Below, in pieces: positions 1-51,700 of a stretch of 64,000 bases of DNA. The stretch is from assembly GCA_977017645.1 (NCBI GenBank), contig OZ360225.1, forward strand, positions 124,372,001 to 124,436,000. Direction: 5' to 3'. A program made the translations under genes and the position numbers. Source of the DNA: Torpedo marmorata (lineage: Eukaryota). The notes beneath the pieces were generated by a model. It worked only from the letters and a program-made list of their open reading frames with translations. It made no database searches and had not been told where the DNA came from. Each line of letters starts with the position of its first letter. Within the stretch, counting starts at the first letter, position 1.

Positions 1-816
1 CTTCCCGAAGCACTCCACTTCATCCGCTCCCTGCTATGCACATCCACCAATGCCACCCCTCATGACAGACTCTTTTCCTTCCCCAGGAAGTCGACCACCG
101 GGACTACCTTACCAGCATGGCTGACGTTCTCAGGGCCAGTGCTGCTCCGGAAACATGTCAGGAGGGTTCAACTACTACATGCGAACCCCCAGTACGCCTA
201 CGTGGTTTTTCCTGATGGGTGGGAAGACACGATCTCCATCCGGGACCTGGCGCCCGCAGGAGCACTGGTGCCCGCCCCCGAACACTCCGTAGTTACTGTC
301 ACCCCCGCACCTACCATTACAGACACACAAGAGGCACCACCCAATTCAAACCTGACACCAAACGTACTGGTATATACACACGAGGTTTTGTGAACGCCAG
401 ATATGCTGGTACCCCAAATCAGGCAGGAGGCAGCACCGCCGCCTGCCCCATCACCACAAGTACCGCACCGATCACAGCGGCGGACCCGACCGCCTGATCG
501 ACTCGACCTGTAATTTGTAAATTCTTTGAAAATATTGTTACACCCTTCACCCCGTGGGACTCTTTTAAAAGGAGGAGTGAATGTGGTAAACCACTATGTT
601 TAGGTTGTGGGCTGGGTGATATGTCTGGACATGCCCTCTGCTGACTGTCCCGGTGGCTCCTCCCACAGACCCCCTGAATAAAGGCTATTGTGCCACCACT
701 CCTCCCCCAGTCCAGGACAGACAACCAGCATGGATGTAGCTCCATTCTTTTGCTAATAAAATCCTTTCAGTTCAAGTACAACTTCTAGTCTTTTGAAGTT
801 ATTGATGGGCTCATCA
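1..816 (+). mobile_element. 3' part of a Ty3/Gypsy LTR retrotransposon (integrase C-terminus, PPT, 3' LTR), truncated by the window start
   Basis: Frame 1 reads LPEALHFIRSLLCTSTNATPHDRLFSFPRKSTTG...ANPQYAYVVFPDG, colinear with the element at 2180..6672. After a frameshift it ends in RPPDRLDL* (~513). PPT AAAAGGAGGAGTGAA at 567..581. Confidence 0.93.
582..816 (+). repeat. 3' LTR (235 bp, TG...CA)
   Basis: Starts TGTGGTAAACCACT like the LTRs at 2180 and 6422, ends CATCA, follows the PPT directly, and contains AATAAA. Confidence 0.92.
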
Positions 817-2179: not shown

Positions 2180-2430
2180 TGTGGTAAACCACTGTTTATG
2201 TATTGTGGTGTAGAGGTGTATTGCAGGCTGTCCCGATGTCTACTCCCTCCCCTCCCTTGGGTGTCCAGGTAATCCCTCCCCTTTCCTCACCTGAATAAAG
2301 GCCACTGTATCTCGGCCACTCCTCCAGTCCGGGTCAGATCTGCTGGAAAGCTCTGCATAGTTCTTAGGTAATAAAAGCCTATGGTTCACTCACGCTCATA
2401 GTCTTCGAGTGTTTATTGATAGGCCTATCA
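2180..2430 (+). repeat. 5' LTR
   Basis: Base-by-base match to 6422..6672 on visual comparison. Confidence 0.97.
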
Positions 2431-2453
2431 ATTTTATTACCTAATAAAATCTG

Positions 2454-5400
2454 ATGGAAGGAGCCCTAAAACCGGACCGCCTGGACATCGATCACCTAGC
2501 TCCTGATGCCAGTAACTCCTTCGAACACTGGCTACGATGTCTGGAATCGTTTATGATCACCGTCCGAGCCGAAAGTGAGGAGCAGCAACTGAGAGTCCTC
2601 ATCTCCAGGGTGAGCTCTCGGGTTTTCACAACAGTGAGAGACTGTAGAACCTACACGGAGGCCATGGATGCGTTGAAAAAGATTTACTTGTCGCCTGTCA
2701 ACGCGGTCTACGCGAGGTACCGACTCTTTTCGCGAAAGCAGCGAGCTGGGGAGTCGACCGTGGAGTACGTCAGGGACATACAGTCGCTGGCTCGAGCATG
2801 CGACTGTAAAGCCCTAACGGCTGAGGAACACGTTGGAGTGGTGGAGAGAGATGCATTCATCATGGAGATCAGGTCGGTATATGTGCGCCAGAGACTGTTG
2901 GAGCACGCCGACCTGGACTTTCGTGGGGCAGTAGCGATGGTCCACACGCTGGAGTCCGCGCAGCGGAACTCCGATGCAATGCAGGTACGCGACCCCCAGC
3001 CCGCAACGTGGTCATCCCCATCCCCCAGCCCTGACAACGAACTGACTGCCGCCGCCGCCGCCGCCGTCCGTAGTGACCCGATCGCTACCGCGATCCTCAC
3101 CGCCGCTGCCGTCAACCGCGAGCCCGAGAAGTGTTACTTCTGCGGGCTCGATAAACACCCGAGGAAACGCTGCCCGGCCCGCGACGCAACTTGTTCCGGA
3201 TGCGGCAAGAAAGGCCATTATGTGAAGGCCTGCCGCTCCAAGTCGCGCCCGGGCCCGAGCAGTGCCGCGTGCGAGCTGCGGGGGCGGCCATCTTACCTGC
3301 TGCCGCTTCCGGCGTCGACCTCGTGTGAAGAATGGAGGCGACCATCTTTGATGCTGGCACTTCCGGCGCCACCACCCGCGTCGGTACTTCCGGCCTTACT
3401 ACCGCCGCCATCTTGCAGCGCGAGCAGCAGCGACACGTGCGATCCACGGGAGCGGCCATCTTTGACAACAGTAGAGGAGGAAGATGACTACATCTCAACA
3501 CTTGCATCAGTCACCCTTGACCAGAGTGTTCCACACCAGCTATCAAGATCCATGATGGACATTCTGGTGGAGGGGCACAAAACCACCTGCCTCTTCGATA
3601 CGGGCAGTACGGAGAGTTTCACTGTCCAGCGCTGTGGCCTCACTACCATACCGGTAAGCCAGAGGGTGGCCATGGCGTCTGGGGCTCACACAACAGACAT
3701 CCAGGGGGCTTGTGTGGCAAATATTGTTGTACAAGGGACTGAGTATCGACAATTTTCGTTATTTATTATGAATCGGTTGTGTGCACCTGTTTTATTAGGA
3801 CTCGATTTTCAGAGCCACTTACGTAGTGTTACTATGCGTTATGACGGTCCCCACCCTGCGATCACTGTAGTAAACCACCAGTTCCTGAATAATACGCCCC
3901 AAACTACCTGTGGCCTCTCCACTCTTAAGATCTCGCCGCCGTCGCTATTCGCCAACCTGACCCCTGACTGTAAGCCTGTGGCAACCAAGAGCAGGCGATA
4001 CAGTTCGGAGGACAGGGCGTTTATCAAGACGGAGGTGCAGAGATTATTACAGGAGGGGATTATTGAGAGGAGTAATAGTCCCTGGAGGGCACAGGTAGTC
4101 GTAGTAAAAGGGGCCAAGAGTAGGATGGTGGTGGATTACAGTCAGACGATTAATCGGTTCACACAGTTGGACGCATATCCGCTACCACGAATAGCGGATA
4201 TCGTTAATCAGATCGCCCAATACAGGGTCTTTTCCACTATCGACCTGAAATCCGCATATCATCAGCTCCCTATCCGACGGGAAGACCGACAGTACACTGC
4301 GTTCGAGGCAGATGGGAAACTTTTCCATTTCCTGCGGGTTCCGTTCGGGGTTACTAATGGAGTTTCTGTGTTTCAGCGGGAGATGGATAGGATTGTGGAC
4401 TACTATAAACTTAAGGCCACTTTCCTGTACCTGGACGATATCACCATCTGTGGACTGGATCGTCAGGATCACGATAACAACCTCCGGAAGTTCCTGCAGG
4501 CGGCAAAAGCACTAAACCTGACATATAATAAAGAAAAATGTGTGTTTGGTACCACACGCCTCGCTATTTTGGGGTATGTGGTAGAGAACGGGGTGATTGG
4601 GCCCGACCCCGACCGCATGCGGCCCCTACTGGAACTTTCACTTCCTCCCACCCCCAAAGCACTCAAACGATGCCTCGGGTTCTTCTCATATTATGCGCAG
4701 TGGGTACCAAATTATGCTGATAAGGCCCGACCCCTGGTGAAATCCACCGCATTTCCCCTTGATTCGGAGGCACGTAAGGCCTTTGACCTTATAAAAGGGG
4801 ACATTGCTCGAGCAACAATGCACGCAGTGGATGAAGGGACACCTTTTCAGGTAGAGAGCGACGCATCGGACTTCGCGCTGGCTGCTACCCTCAACCAGGC
4901 GGGAAGGCCGGTGGCGTTTTCCTCACGGACCCTTCAAGGCCCCGAAATTCGGCACTCCGCGGTAGAGAAAGAAGCCCAGGCCATAGTGGAAGCAATCAGG
5001 CACTGGAGGCACTATCTTGCCGGCAAGCATTTTACCCTGCTAACCGACCAACGCTCGGTGGCATTTATGTTCAACAACCAGCAGCGGGGTAAGATCAAAA
5101 ACGACAAGATCATGAGGTGGAGAATAGAACTCTCCACCTATAACTATGACATCCTCTACCGGCCCGGGAAGCTCAATGAGCCCTCGGACGCTCTATCCCG
5201 GGGATCATGCGCCAGCGCGCAGGTCGACCGATTACATGCCCTACACGACGTCCTCTGCCACCCAGGGATTACCAGGCTCTTTCACTTCGTGAAGTCACAG
5301 AACCTGCCATACTCCCTGGAAGAGGTCAGGACATTGATCAGAGGCTGCCGGGTTTGCGCGGAGTGCAAACCTCAGTTCTACCGCCCCGACAGGGCACAGC

Positions 5401-5873
5401 TGATCAAAGCCACTCGCCCCTTTGAACGTCTCAGTATTGACTTCAAGGGGCCCCTTCCCTCCACGAACCGCAACGTGTACTTCTTAAACATCATTGATGA
5501 GTACTCGCGGTTCCCCTTTGCCATCCCCTGTCTCGACACTTCAGCTACCTCAACCATAAAAGCTCTCCACCAGGTATTCGCGCTGTTTGGTTTCCCAAAC
5601 TACATACATAGCGACCGGGGAGCAGCTTTCATGAGTGAGGAGCTGCGACGGTACCTGCAGGCCCGAGGCATCGCCACTAGCAGGACCACCGGATCCAACC
5701 CCCGGGGAAATGGGCAGGTGGAGAGGGAGAACGCTACTGTATGGAAGGCCGCGCTCCTGGCTCTCAAGTCCAAGGGATGGCCGGTCTCCCGCTGGCAGGA
5801 TGTTCTTCCCGAAGCCCTCCACTCTATCCGGTCCCTGCTGTGCACATCCACCAACGCAACCCCTCATGAATGA
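2454..5873 (+). CDS. Gag-Pol polyprotein (1139 aa to a premature TGA; the frame continues to 6332)
   Basis: Two CCHC knuckles (CYFCGLDKHPRKRC, CSGCGKKGHYVKAC), protease LFDTGS, RT LDAYPLP...YLDD, RNase H VESDASD...EKEA...TDQ, integrase HHCC (H..LCH...CRVC) and D,D35E (IDFKG, HSDRG, VEREN). Confidence 0.96.
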   Translation: MEGALKPDRLDIDHLAPDASNSFEHWLRCLESFMITVRAESEEQQLRVLISRVSSRVFTTVRDCRTYTEAMDALKKIYLSPVNAVYARYRLFSRKQRAGESTVEYVRDIQSLARACDCKALTAEEHVGVVERDAFIMEIRSVYVRQRLLEHADLDFRGAVAMVHTLESAQRNSDAMQVRDPQPATWSSPSPSPDNELTAAAAAAVRSDPIATAILTAAAVNREPEKCYFCGLDKHPRKRCPARDATCSGCGKKGHYVKACRSKSRPGPSSAACELRGRPSYLLPLPASTSCEEWRRPSLMLALPAPPPASVLPALLPPPSCSASSSDTCDPRERPSLTTVEEEDDYISTLASVTLDQSVPHQLSRSMMDILVEGHKTTCLFDTGSTESFTVQRCGLTTIPVSQRVAMASGAHTTDIQGACVANIVVQGTEYRQFSLFIMNRLCAPVLLGLDFQSHLRSVTMRYDGPHPAITVVNHQFLNNTPQTTCGLSTLKISPPSLFANLTPDCKPVATKSRRYSSEDRAFIKTEVQRLLQEGIIERSNSPWRAQVVVVKGAKSRMVVDYSQTINRFTQLDAYPLPRIADIVNQIAQYRVFSTIDLKSAYHQLPIRREDRQYTAFEADGKLFHFLRVPFGVTNGVSVFQREMDRIVDYYKLKATFLYLDDITICGLDRQDHDNNLRKFLQAAKALNLTYNKEKCVFGTTRLAILGYVVENGVIGPDPDRMRPLLELSLPPTPKALKRCLGFFSYYAQWVPNYADKARPLVKSTAFPLDSEARKAFDLIKGDIARATMHAVDEGTPFQVESDASDFALAATLNQAGRPVAFSSRTLQGPEIRHSAVEKEAQAIVEAIRHWRHYLAGKHFTLLTDQRSVAFMFNNQQRGKIKNDKIMRWRIELSTYNYDILYRPGKLNEPSDALSRGSCASAQVDRLHALHDVLCHPGITRLFHFVKSQNLPYSLEEVRTLIRGCRVCAECKPQFYRPDRAQLIKATRPFERLSIDFKGPLPSTNRNVYFLNIIDEYSRFPFAIPCLDTSATSTIKALHQVFALFGFPNYIHSDRGAAFMSEELRRYLQARGIATSRTTGSNPRGNGQVERENATVWKAALLALKSKGWPVSRWQDVLPEALHSIRSLLCTSTNATPHE

Positions 5874-6332
5874 TTTTTTTCCTTCCCCAGGAAGTCGACC
5901 ACCGGGACCGCCCTACCTGCCTGGCTGATGTCCCCGGGACCAGTGCTGCTCCGCAATCACCTTCGGAGCAGCAAATATGAGCCGACAGTTCAGAGGGTGC
6001 AGTTGGCGCACGCCAACCCCCAATATGCGTACGTGGTCTTCCCTGATGGACGTGAGGACACGGTCTCGATTCGGGACCTGGTGCCCGATGGGGCACCGGA
6101 AGAACATTCCGACGGGCAAGACCACTTGCTGCAACCCCTCTCTAACTCCCCACCCAATGTGTCAGACCCAGCCCCCTCGACGGGACCACAGGCATTCCAA
6201 GAGGCCAGGCAGGAGGCGACGGCGCAGACGACCTTACCATCTTCCCCATCACTACCACCTCCCCCATCACCACAACCCGCCCCACGCAGGTCAAAGCGGC
6301 AAATTCGGCCGCCGGATCGCCTTGACCTGTGA
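5874..6332 (+). pseudogene. In-frame integrase C-terminal domain beyond the premature stop
   Basis: Same frame as 2454; FFSFPRKSTTG...ANPQYAYVVFPDG...RRSKRQIRPPDRLDL* aligns with the sister element at 1..513. Confidence 0.9.
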
Positions 6333-6421
6333 AAAAGGACTTGTACATATTTTTCTTTTATTGTGTGTTTAATTAGAGTGGTCACGTCACCCCGTTGGAT
6401 TCTTTTAAAAGGAGGGGTGAA

Positions 6422-6672
6422 TGTGGTAAACCACTGTTTATGTATTGTGGTGTAGAGGTGTATTGCAGGCTGTCCCGATGTCTACTCCCTCCCCTCCCTT
6501 GGGTGTCCAGGTAATCCCTCCCCTTTCCTCACCTGAATAAAGGCCACTGTATCTCGGCCACTCCTCCAGTCCGGGTCAGATCTGCTGGAAAGCTCTGCAT
6601 AGTTCTTAGGTAATAAAAGCCTATGGTTCACTCACGCTCATAGTCTTCGAGTGTTTATTGATAGGCCTATCA
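6422..6672 (+). repeat. 3' LTR
   Basis: Follows the PPT AAAAGGAGGGGTGAA, is identical to the 5' LTR and is followed by the TSD TGGCC. Confidence 0.97.
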
Positions 6673-7134
6673 TGGCCAACCTTTTACATTCCATGCGTCA
6701 AAATAAATGGTGACAAGGAGGAATTGCGAGAGCGGGCCTTGGTAGCCGCCATGTTGTATTTGGCTTCGGCCTTTTAATAAGTTGAGAGTGAACAGGATGA
6801 TGAGGAAGGGTGGACAGAGCGGAGAAGAAAGAGGTGTGTGTTCTTTGTATGTCGGGGGGTATCGGGGGGTGGCACTGGCTGGGGTTGGCGCTGACCGGGG
6901 TGGGGGGTGGCGCGAAGCCCGGCTGAAGAAAATTATTTTTTCATTATCCAAGGATAGAAACTGCTCAGTGGCGCCCCCATTCAAGTAGCGCCCAGGGCAT
7001 ATGCCATACCTGCCACACGTTAGATGTGCCTCCAGATGCTGCAGAGATCAGTGGGTGCTGCAGAGATCGATGGATGGTGCAAGAATTGTTGGGTGGGGCA
7101 GGGATAGGTAGATGGTGCTGGGATCAGTGGGTGC

Positions 7135-7462
7135 TGATGATGCTATAGCCTTGTCCCTCCACTCCGACCTGACCCACTTGGAAGACGACGCCTCATACTC
7201 CAGGGTGCTGTTCATCGACTGCAGCTTGGTGTTTAATGCAATCATTCCCCAGAGGCTGGTGGAGAAGCTGTCCTCGCTGGGACTCAACAGCCTTCTCTGA
7301 AACTGGATCCTGGACTTCCTAACAGAAAGACCACAGTCTGTCTGGGTCTGTAGCAGAACATCGAGCACCGTCACGCTGAGCACTGGCGCACCTCAGGGCT
7401 GTGTGCTCAGCTCGCTCCTGTTCACACTACTGACCCACGACTGCATCATCAGATCCAGCTAC
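7135..7462 (+). mobile_element. Rex1/Babar-type LINE RT fragment
   Basis: DAIALSLH...[16 protein letters not shown]...[12 protein letters not shown]...GAPQGCVLS, with a stop/frameshift. Confidence 0.85.
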
Positions 7463-48786: not shown

Positions 48787-51700
48787 TGTACTGATAGAGT
48801 GCTAGTGCTAATTCTGACCACTAGGGGGAGTCGGGAGATGAGCTGTTGTATCTTGGGTAGATTCAAAATGGATGCCTCCATGAGGTCTTTTGTGAGTGTG
48901 CTCTAGCTAATAAATATAGTTGTTTTAAAAGAACCCAAGTTTCTTTATTACAATAAAAGAAACATCACATGGTACCAGGAGTGTGCAGTGTGCACAGGAG
49001 TGGAACATACACCAGGAGTGTGCAGAGTGAGTATCAGTTGATATAGCAACAGAAAATATGGAGAGTATAAAGTCTCCTAACGCTGTAAATTGGACTAGAA
49101 ATGTCGACCACGAGTGGAGGCTGTTCAAACAAAGATTCACGCTGTACCTGCAAGCCATTGGAGTCAGTAGAAAACCTGATGCATGGAAGATTGCACTGCT
49201 ACTTACTGTGGCGGGACCTCAAGCACTAGAGGTTTTCAATACATTTGTTTTTGCCGAGGCAGAAGACCAGGGCAAGTTCGACAAAGTTATTAAGATGTTT
49301 GATGAACACTGTTCACCAAAGAAAAATGAAATGTTTGAGAGGTACGTGTTTTGCTCGCGCACGCAGCTGCAGGGAGAGAGCTTTGATACTTTTTTAACAG
49401 ACTTGAAATTAAAAGCAAGAGCATTCAATTTTGGATCGCTGCAAGATTCAATGATCCGTGATCAAATTGTGTTCGGGATTATTGATAAGAAAGTGAGAGA
49501 GAGGTTGCTGCGAGAGACAGAGCTTACCTTAGCTGGAGCTGTGAAGATATGCAATGCTAATGAATTAGTTCTGCAGCACGTGAAAAAGGTGAGAGTGCAA
49601 AAGCCATTGAAAACGAAGGCATAGCCGTAGCCACAATGTGTGTCCACACACATAAACAAAAAACTAATATAGGAAACAAAAAAAGATGGAGAGACATTCA
49701 AGTGCAAACGATGTGGCACTCAATATGCACCAAACCAATGCCCCGCCTATGGAAAAGTCTGTAATAAGTGCAAAGGGCAGAATCACTATGCAAAGCAAAG
49801 TTTTTCCAAAGGGAAATAAAACAGAAGTGAAAGCGTATACACTGTACACACAATAGAAGGAACTGCCCTCAGTGATACACTTTTCATTGGCATGGTAGTG
49901 CAGGAAGATTATAAACCAACAGACACTGAACAGCCAAGCGTGAACAGAGTCGAGCAGGATAAGTGGACTGTGTCATTGCATACAAATGGAACAAATATTC
50001 CTTTCAAGCTGGACACAGAGGCAAAGGTCAATTTGATCTGTGAGCATGACATCAGGGCAATGAAGATAAAGCCATACATCCATGCAAATCCGATACAGCT
50101 CAAAGCCTACAATGGACAGAGCATTGACACGAAAGGTACATGTAAACTCAAGGTGAATGTTAAAGATAAAGAGGACCACCTCAGGTTCACAGTAGTCCCA
50201 GATGGACATGAATCACTGCTTGATGACAAAGCATGTGAAAACTTAAGCCTAGCCAAGAGGGTGTTCACACCAGGGAAACCTATTGTGTTAGCTGATGCGT
50301 TGTCTAGGGCAACGACGCAGGGTGAAGCAAACAATGAGAGTTCCACAGAGACAGATGTGAATCTCCACGTGAATCTGATCACTGAATATCTTCCCGTATC
50401 TGACATGAAATCCAAGCAGATTGCAGCTGAACAGACAAGGACACAGTTCTACAGAAGGTCATCGAGAATCTGAATGAAGGATGGCCTAGAGGTGAATGTA
50501 AGCCATACTTCAACATCAGAGCTGAGCTGAGTGTTGTCAATGGGCTTCTACTCAGACAGAGCACAATTGTCATTCCTCAATCACTGCGACAAGAGATACT
50601 GAAAAGAGTGCATGAGGGGCACCTTGCAATGGAAAAATGCAAGAGGACGGCCAGAACTGCTGTTTATTGGCCAGGGATAAATGCTGACATTGACAGAATG
50701 GTTTCAAGCTGTGAGACCTGTTTGAAACATCATGCAAAGCAGACAAAGGAACCCATGATCATAACTGCCTTACCAGCGGAACCATGGCAAAAGTTGGGAC
50801 TGATCTGTTCCACATGGATGGATGAATTACTTGCTGGTTATTGACTATCTATCAAACTATCCAGAGATTGTGCTGCTTCCTAATATGTCTGCTGCTTGTG
50901 TGATCAAATATATGAAATCGATCTTTGCAAGACATGGAATTTCTCAAATTGTCTGCAGTGACAATGGATCATGCTACAGCTGTAGAGAATTCCAGAACTT
51001 TGCAGAAGAGTATGATTTTCAACATGTGACTTCAAGTCCTCTGTATCCACAGTCAAACGGTAAAGCAGAGAAAGGAGTGCACATAGTTAAACAGTTGCTC
51101 AATAAAGCACTAGACAGTGGCTCAGATCCGTATCTAGATCTATTGAGTTACAGAGCTTCGCCATTTGAACATGGCATGTCATCCGCTGAGCTTCTAATGG
51201 AACATAGACTACGCACCACACTTCCCTACTCTGCATACCCAAACAAGAACAGAGATGTCGAAGATGTCGAACGGAAACAAAAGCGTCTTCAATGGAGACA
51301 AAAAGCAAATTATGACAAGTCAGCAAGAAGCTTAGGTCCACTGGCACAACATGACACAGTGAGAATCAGAGATTCCCACACTTGGGACAAAAAGGTTACT
51401 GTTCTGGAGGAAGTAAATCCAAGATCCTACACTGTCAGAACAGAGGATAGTCGAATACTGAGGAGGAATTGAAAGAGCCTGCTGAAAATGCAAGAGACAC
51501 TGCAGGAACAGACAAATGCAGAAGATCCAGCCTGCACAGCAATAGAGAAAACACCACCAGTGCTAGACAGTAGTGGACCAGCAGAGCCGACACAAGCACC
51601 TGTGTTAAGAAGATCCACACGCGTTATCAAAGCACCTGACAGATTGAATCTCTAAAAGAAAAAGAACTGCACATTTAAAAAGTTTGTGCTGCTGATGTGT

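Follow-up and report, generated by a model that had tools for sequence, protein, structure and literature searches.

The primer-binding site (PBS) of a young Ty3/gypsy retrotransposon in Torpedo marmorata is complementary to a segment of the element's own long terminal repeat (LTR), and a second helix, overlooked in the preliminary description of this DNA, begins at the first base past that segment. On balance, we favour an arrangement in which the LTR-PBS helix (P1) is likely to supply a self-primer, the second helix (P2) is predicted to sit on the 3' end of this primer, stem-loop A acts as a variable cap, and stem-loop B at the LTR end is a lineage-specific alternative. The complementarity and covariation of P1, the one-base gap between the terminal CA of the LTR and the PBS, and the complementarity of P2 at a fixed position can be read from the letters themselves. 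Modelling predicts a ground state composed of P1, P2 and A, with 2425-2431 left single-stranded. A helix starting at the likely primer cut site, and predicted by the folding models to block stem B, is shared among relatives. The preliminary description had proposed a selected U5 fold in which A and B together bring the primer to the PBS; a covarying LTR-PBS helix and a structured U5 are borne out, but the architecture of A plus B is not.

Element 2, element 1 and the sampled relatives

Coordinates refer to the window, the whole 64,000-nt stretch of DNA that was analysed, and the features described lie on its plus strand. Element 2 (2180-6672) is a young Ty3/gypsy LTR retrotransposon. Its 5' LTR (2180..2430) and 3' LTR (6422..6672), each of 251 nt and identical in sequence, begin with TG and end with CA, and the element is flanked by the target duplication TGGCC (2175-2179 and 6673-6677). 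A polypurine tract, read from the sequence, lies at 6407..6417, 4 nt 5' of the 3' LTR. A single frame (2454..6332), with a stop codon inside it at 5871-5873, encodes gag with two CCHC arrays, followed by protease, reverse transcriptase (RT), RNase H and integrase. This domain order, obtained with Pfam, is that of Ty3/gypsy, and the RT is nearest to Ty3, the best PDB match being Ty3 Gag-Pol. No tRNA-type PBS is present in element 2, and the PBS does not start with TGG. A chromodomain at the integrase C-terminus, as expected of the Tf1/sushi group, was not found by Pfam in the C-terminal part of element 2. In addition, no chromodomain accession occurred among the 120 homologs listed for its protein, and 12 chromodomain loci from the genome had no pol match. 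Among the matches listed, ray and shark proteins are the nearest named ones (75-83% identity); next, with an identity of about 60%, are sea anemone and nematode proteins and unnamed marine sequences. Rfam gave no match in window 2180-2600, and 24 stretches of viral contigs contained no relative of the element. Element 2 sits in a degenerate 19-nt tandem repeat that resumes on both sides (1996-2154 and 7016-7155). Elsewhere, at window 50828-51130, there is a weak integrase-region match (25% identity) that is probably a piece of another element.

Element 1 is represented in the window by its 3' LTR (582..816, target duplication CCTTG); its 5' LTR and PBS are located outside the window, on the upstream side, and were taken from a longer locus (L031). 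At 7,570 nt (L031 2247-9816) it exceeds element 2 by about 3 kb. Of 225 bases aligned between its two LTRs, 9 are different, and the 5' copy has lost 10 nt of stem-loop A. Between the LTRs of elements 1 and 2, 157 of 229 aligned bases are identical.

A pattern describing the LTR-PBS junction matched 36,787 times in the genome, compared with 2,213 times for a control pattern. From the pattern matches and from individual loci, 45 junctions were hand-picked for diversity and aligned (alignment A2; L250 was left out). In most rows of A2 the search patterns impose AATAAA, the last bases of the LTR and TTTTATT, so that these columns are uninformative. Depth beyond this genome was provided by 80 metagenome loci and 8 contigs from prokaryote bins, which we take to be host DNA; 48 of them, with a gag start and at least 100 nt upstream, are referred to as external loci. 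The eight bin contigs (L252-L259), which come from bacterial genome bins, carry these animal-type retrotransposons and are probably host contamination. Ten of the 48 external loci, lacking an intact P1, were left out: seven look decayed or have a single mismatch, and L105, L159 and L160 yielded no junction. Tests at larger distance used 30 distinct distant families, selected for an intact P1 and with duplicates within a family removed. Covariation was judged by 500 column shuffles, by parsimony counts on a 43-row gag tree (L062 and L071 were excluded for their long branches) and by RNAalifold. A second lineage of the same clade was found in the same genome (the L192 group); it has an 18-bp primer helix without AATAAA and a P2 hairpin of 6 bp, and stem B is absent from it. 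A supposed third lineage (L262, L287) had neither gag nor P1 and was rejected. One junction pattern also matched by chance a tandem repeat array with 50-55-nt units (G000:C1:26554323-26555546; L263-L283).

The putative primer helix and the junction helix

The putative self-primer, the 5' strand of P1, occupies 2364..2376 and contains AATAAA at 2370-2375. It forms 13 Watson-Crick pairs with the PBS (2432..2444), which begins one base past the terminal CA of the LTR. A PBS complementary to an LTR segment, with no tRNA PBS, is what characterizes self-priming of the Tf1 type, and by this analogy 2364-2376 is likely to be the element's own primer. In A2, 97% of the 585 cells of P1 are paired and 96 are double-change cells, a result reached by none of 500 shuffles. 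On the gag tree, 37 of 42 primer-side changes are matched on the same branch, with one G.U cell. Furthermore, 10-19 perfect pairs starting one base past the CA were found in 38 of the 48 external loci, and the one-base LTR-PBS gap is present in 118 of 122 own-genome loci having 9 or more pairs. Almost all families have AAA at the end of the primer segment, and the G that follows AATAAAA is almost invariant (493 non-G matches, 134 in the control). Among 33 rows with primer variants, 11 were single-copy variants without a match in the PBS, and the 22 matched rows were all amplified subfamilies; a change confined to the PBS was seen in 16 rows. One external copy (L121) carries a matched change in both LTRs and in the PBS. 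A further pairing, of the PBS with the bases directly 3' of it (window 2431-2450), is available in element 2's family and was not seen in other subfamilies.

In Tf1, the first 11 bases are described as pairing with the PBS, and RNase H as cleaving after base 11 (PMC7175516). Since the Tf1 cut falls at the end of the primer duplex, the likely cut here is 2376/2377, which is the P1/P2 junction. By extension from Tf1, RT/RNase H would nick at this junction and RT would extend the new 3' end, copying A2431 first and then U5; strand transfer would proceed via a short R, extending from 2377 to the poly(A) site. The primer would be copied during plus-strand synthesis, and the PBS so rewritten in one step. 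Such copying would explain why the double changes in P1 are Watson-Crick only, although the single-copy variants without a match in the PBS do not bear it out. Stem B might arise once the nick has been made, or on the DNA end.

An initiator-like motif lies 15-19 nt 5' of the primer 3' end in 14 of 16 lineage representatives and in 6 of 29 distant families. A second AATAAA, 84-108 nt before the primer 3' end (window 2290-2301), is conserved in the lineage and may be a TATA-like promoter that would give a longer leader. It is followed after about 30 nt by a second initiator-like motif (window 2323-2329), which lies about 50 nt before the primer end. Because the initiator is scarce in distant families, and because this upstream AATAAA/initiator pair is a rival start, the primer is possibly not the RNA 5' end.

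P2 joins 2377..2382, beginning at the first base past the primer, with 2419..2424, which is a portion of the 5' arm and loop of B. The bases directly after the primer are GCC or ACC in most families and are paired with GGY. In 23 of the 30 distant families, the first three post-primer bases are paired with a probability above 0.5. The mean probability of P2 across the 30 families is 0.71, against 0.46 in shuffles with the first four bases left unchanged (Wilcoxon p 1e-5); seven of the 30 have no confident P2, and only a few exceed their own shuffles singly. The first pair varies (A-U in 7, G-C in 6, G.U in 9 and U-A in 1), inner pairs are changed in L107, L144, L192 and L254, and in total 89 Watson-Crick and 11 wobble pairs were counted. 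Since the position of the partner strand varies among distant families, these pairs were fitted rather than aligned; in most of these families P2 takes the form of a local hairpin that is remote from the PBS. Within the lineage of element 2, P2 is 86.5% paired and 98 of 500 column shuffles are as good, so its covariation is not above that of shuffles, because the core and the 3' strand hardly vary.

Folding of the whole primer-to-PBS region gave z -4.5 for element 2 and -4.1 for element 1, with none of 200 shuffles as good in either case. In this fold A forms and B is replaced by P2. When A plus B were folded alone, z was -1.7 for element 2 (10 of 200 shuffles as good) and -1.2 for element 1 (23 of 200). 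RNAalifold on the 45 junctions likewise returned P1 and three core pairs of P2; neither A nor B, for both of which covariation had been claimed, is in the consensus.

Stem-loop B, stem-loop A and the competing readings

Stem-loop B of element 2 (2415..2432) straddles the LTR end and is mutually exclusive with P2, because P2 uses its 5' arm and loop. The preliminary description gave its letters and coordinates correctly as a perfect palindrome and placed it at the end of the LTR; the LTR in fact stops at 2430, and the palindrome extends two bases beyond it, T2432 being the first base of the PBS. The counterpart in element 1 (803..816), TGATGGGCTCATCA, is a hairpin and not a palindrome. The compensatory A-T to G-C swap reported between the two elements is real, at 2421:2426. 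Of 54 distinct junctions, 47 give P2 a higher probability than B, and 48 do so after a modelled nick. In one subfamily, whose B is one base shorter, the probability of the P2 core is near 0.01 unless it is forced. Coexistence of the P2 core and B as a pseudoknot was considered and rejected: each would have to lie directly against one and the same closing pair of P1, without a linker, and, by reasoning on the geometry, just 2 nt would be available to cross the groove.

Stem B may nonetheless be selected within element 2's lineage. A possible, still tentative, extension of the main explanation, which it would not replace, is that both states are selected: P2 would hold the junction for cleavage, after which 2415-2421 would re-pair as B, a U5-IR-like hairpin beside the PBS serving initiation. 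As expected of a strand with two partners, the shared strand ATTGA, in the 5' arm of B, shows no parsimony changes in five columns, whereas its P2 partner strand shows 5-6 changes per column; 2 of 31 changes fall on the shared side (binomial p 5e-7). In A2, B is 98% paired, with double changes at two pairs (5 cells). Genome-wide, 676 junctions have a C at the 2420 position; of the 100 listed, 86 carry the G that compensates for it. The wobble state has 1,605 matches in the genome. Against such a succession of states, the gag tree records just two compensatory events in B, both stepwise transitions and none simultaneous. The C-G swap is a single stepwise event in one subfamily, where the next pair is an A-C mismatch, and its C strengthens P2 as well; in a small subfamily the swapped pair is mismatched (6 of 100 rows listed). 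Moreover, B remains minor after the modelled nick (mean 0.05), and TCA is imposed by the search pattern in most rows. The wider proposition, that a widespread non-chromoviral animal Gypsy lineage self-primes with an architecture of its own, in which P2 marks the RNase H cut in nearly all families and, in the abundant lineage, the strand then switches to B, is equally conjectural. If true, it would amount to a cleavage-to-initiation RNA switch, undescribed for Tf1, in a very abundant vertebrate lineage.

A constraint on the DNA end could also account for the invariant 5' arm of B. The 14-mer at the U3 end (2180..2193 and 6422-6435) has dyad symmetry and is almost invariant in the lineage; counted from the end, its centre falls between base 7 and base 8, as does that of element 2's B, and a short template hairpin may therefore follow each priming site. 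Dyads of 13-14 bases at both LTR ends, read by integrase or formed in the single-stranded cDNA, would need no RNA-fold role, and B is indeed disfavoured in the RNA context. We nevertheless consider it unlikely that B is simply a feature of this kind, as the LTR ends have no common letters past TG, distant families are without such dyads at either end, and the loop of B is free to vary.

Stem-loop A lies inside P2, at 2392..2412 in element 2 and 780..800 in element 1. The preliminary description was correct in the letters and coordinates of the stem, in its 6 bp in both elements and in the 9-nt loops that both contain TAGTCTT; one pair of element 2's stem is G.U. The further claim that the stems differ and yet pair is sound for the pairing. 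However, TAGTCTT has a different place in the two loops, starting at position 2 (element 2) or position 1 (element 1). The elements had been compared one base out of register, so that the greater part of the difference seen does not reflect covariation. When the stems are aligned on TAGTCTT, the core letters are largely shared, and one true double change and one wobble are left. The larger alignment showed no covariation of stem A (453 of 500 shuffles score as high, in element 1's register), and in that register the stem is 66% paired in A2, a figure lowered by register shifts among subfamilies. Of 25 representatives, 16 have z below -1 against shuffles when the stem A segment is folded singly; the segment is weak in the other 9, including the whole of one clade. 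Stem A is therefore best described as a tolerated or mildly favoured cap with no fixed motif. These results bear directly on the multibranch that A and B had been supposed to close. In favour of such a fold, neither stem conflicts with P1, most subfamilies can fold A and B together when B is forced, and A folds better than shuffles in the 16 representatives. Nevertheless, B competes with P2 for one strand and loses, and an LTR-end hairpin is no commoner in distant families than in shuffles (8 of 30, p 0.51). Together with the weakness of A throughout a clade, this makes the joint multibranch quite improbable.

For P1 itself, the alternative is that it hides the poly(A) signal of the 5' LTR from premature 3' processing, priming being achieved by other means. 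AATAAA does lie inside P1 in element 2, its complement is present only after the 5' LTR, and AATAAA or ATTAAA occurs in the primer segment of 16 of 30 distant families. The other 14 families, however, keep P1 without the hexamer, and as the AAA end is near-universal, P1 fits a primer better than a mask. In addition, P1 begins at a fixed point one base past the LTR end, the position required of a primer; it is nearly free of G.U pairs, unlike P2 with 11 in 100; and a tRNA-type PBS is absent. Masking as the sole function is accordingly very unlikely, and it could be a second role of P1. As for the palindrome as a dimer-initiation site, which the preliminary description had suggested, 16-mers do self-pair at -24.9 kcal/mol (element 2) and -22.9 kcal/mol (element 1), but the idea is hardly credible, given that the palindrome is perfect in only 12 of 45 rows, self-duplex energies run from -24.9 to -6.2 kcal/mol, the loops are mostly not self-complementary, where a conserved self-complementary loop would be expected, and the loop is taken up by P2.

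Comparison with known self-priming systems

Hairpins A and B are less important on their own than the P1/P2 junction. The choice of the RNase H site for self-primers has been studied almost solely in Tf1, and the present relatives offer dozens of diverged families with one geometry: AAA followed by RCC, a one-base LTR-PBS gap, and a helix at the next base. With this shared geometry, the position of the cut and what determines it could be tested precisely on short RNAs, in a family that has tens of thousands of junctions in a single genome. Furthermore, a tRNA-independent element would presumably also escape silencing targeted by tRNA fragments.

The retroviral U5-IR stem-loop, as in Rous sarcoma virus, and its Tf1 counterpart are stems near the PBS. 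Either B, as a short stem at the end of U5 beside the PBS, or P2 enclosing A, as a large-loop stem near the PBS, would resemble this structure. Unlike the structure of Rous sarcoma virus, B is limited to one lineage and competes with P2, and no tRNA is involved. As to its clade, element 2 presumably resembles Cigr-1 and the Mag lineage of non-chromoviral Gypsy elements in its compact length of about 4.5 kb and its single frame, as well as in short LTRs, two CCHC arrays and marine animal hosts; this resemblance serves as a lead.

Cigr-1 has been placed in the Mag lineage and occurs in molluscs, according to PMC6238403. Short-motif searches of the supplements to PMC6238403, PMC8556966 and PMC3601003 gave no reference sequences by which the clade could be named. 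Neither self-priming nor a P2-type helix in a non-chromoviral animal Gypsy clade was found in the literature covered, which included few subscription papers and no Repbase. As described in PMC6317226, complementarity between LTR and PBS over 10 or more bases led to the prediction of self-priming in the plant lineages Tcn1 (gypsy) and TAR (copia); these belong to another superfamily or to the chromovirus branch, whereas the hosts here are animals.

The closest parallel is with Tf1, Tf2, Tj1 and the Tf1/sushi group, which, as far as they are described in PMC10085805, PMC7175516 and PMC4600332, likewise have a PBS complementary to an LTR segment and no tRNA PBS; the extra U5 pairing beside the central duplex is also like that of Tf1 in these sources. 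The Tf1 leader is reported to contain three duplexes (the "pretzel"), two of which are formed by PBS-adjacent sequence with U5 (PMC10085805). A duplex between sequence 3' of the PBS and U5, as in Tf1, was no better than chance here (in 30 distant families, as in 15 lineage families, a median fraction of 0.49 of the shuffles did equally well). B matches the pretzel duplex that involves the sequence directly 5' of the PBS, as that duplex is described, yet here it is outcompeted and lineage-specific. Unlike the Tf1/sushi chromoviruses, element 2 has no chromodomain match and has two CCHC arrays, and its primer-PBS stretch and those of its relatives span 10-19 bp rather than the 11 bp described for Tf1. 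Finally, what sets these elements apart from Tf1 is the conserved extra helix, P2, that begins at the first post-primer base.
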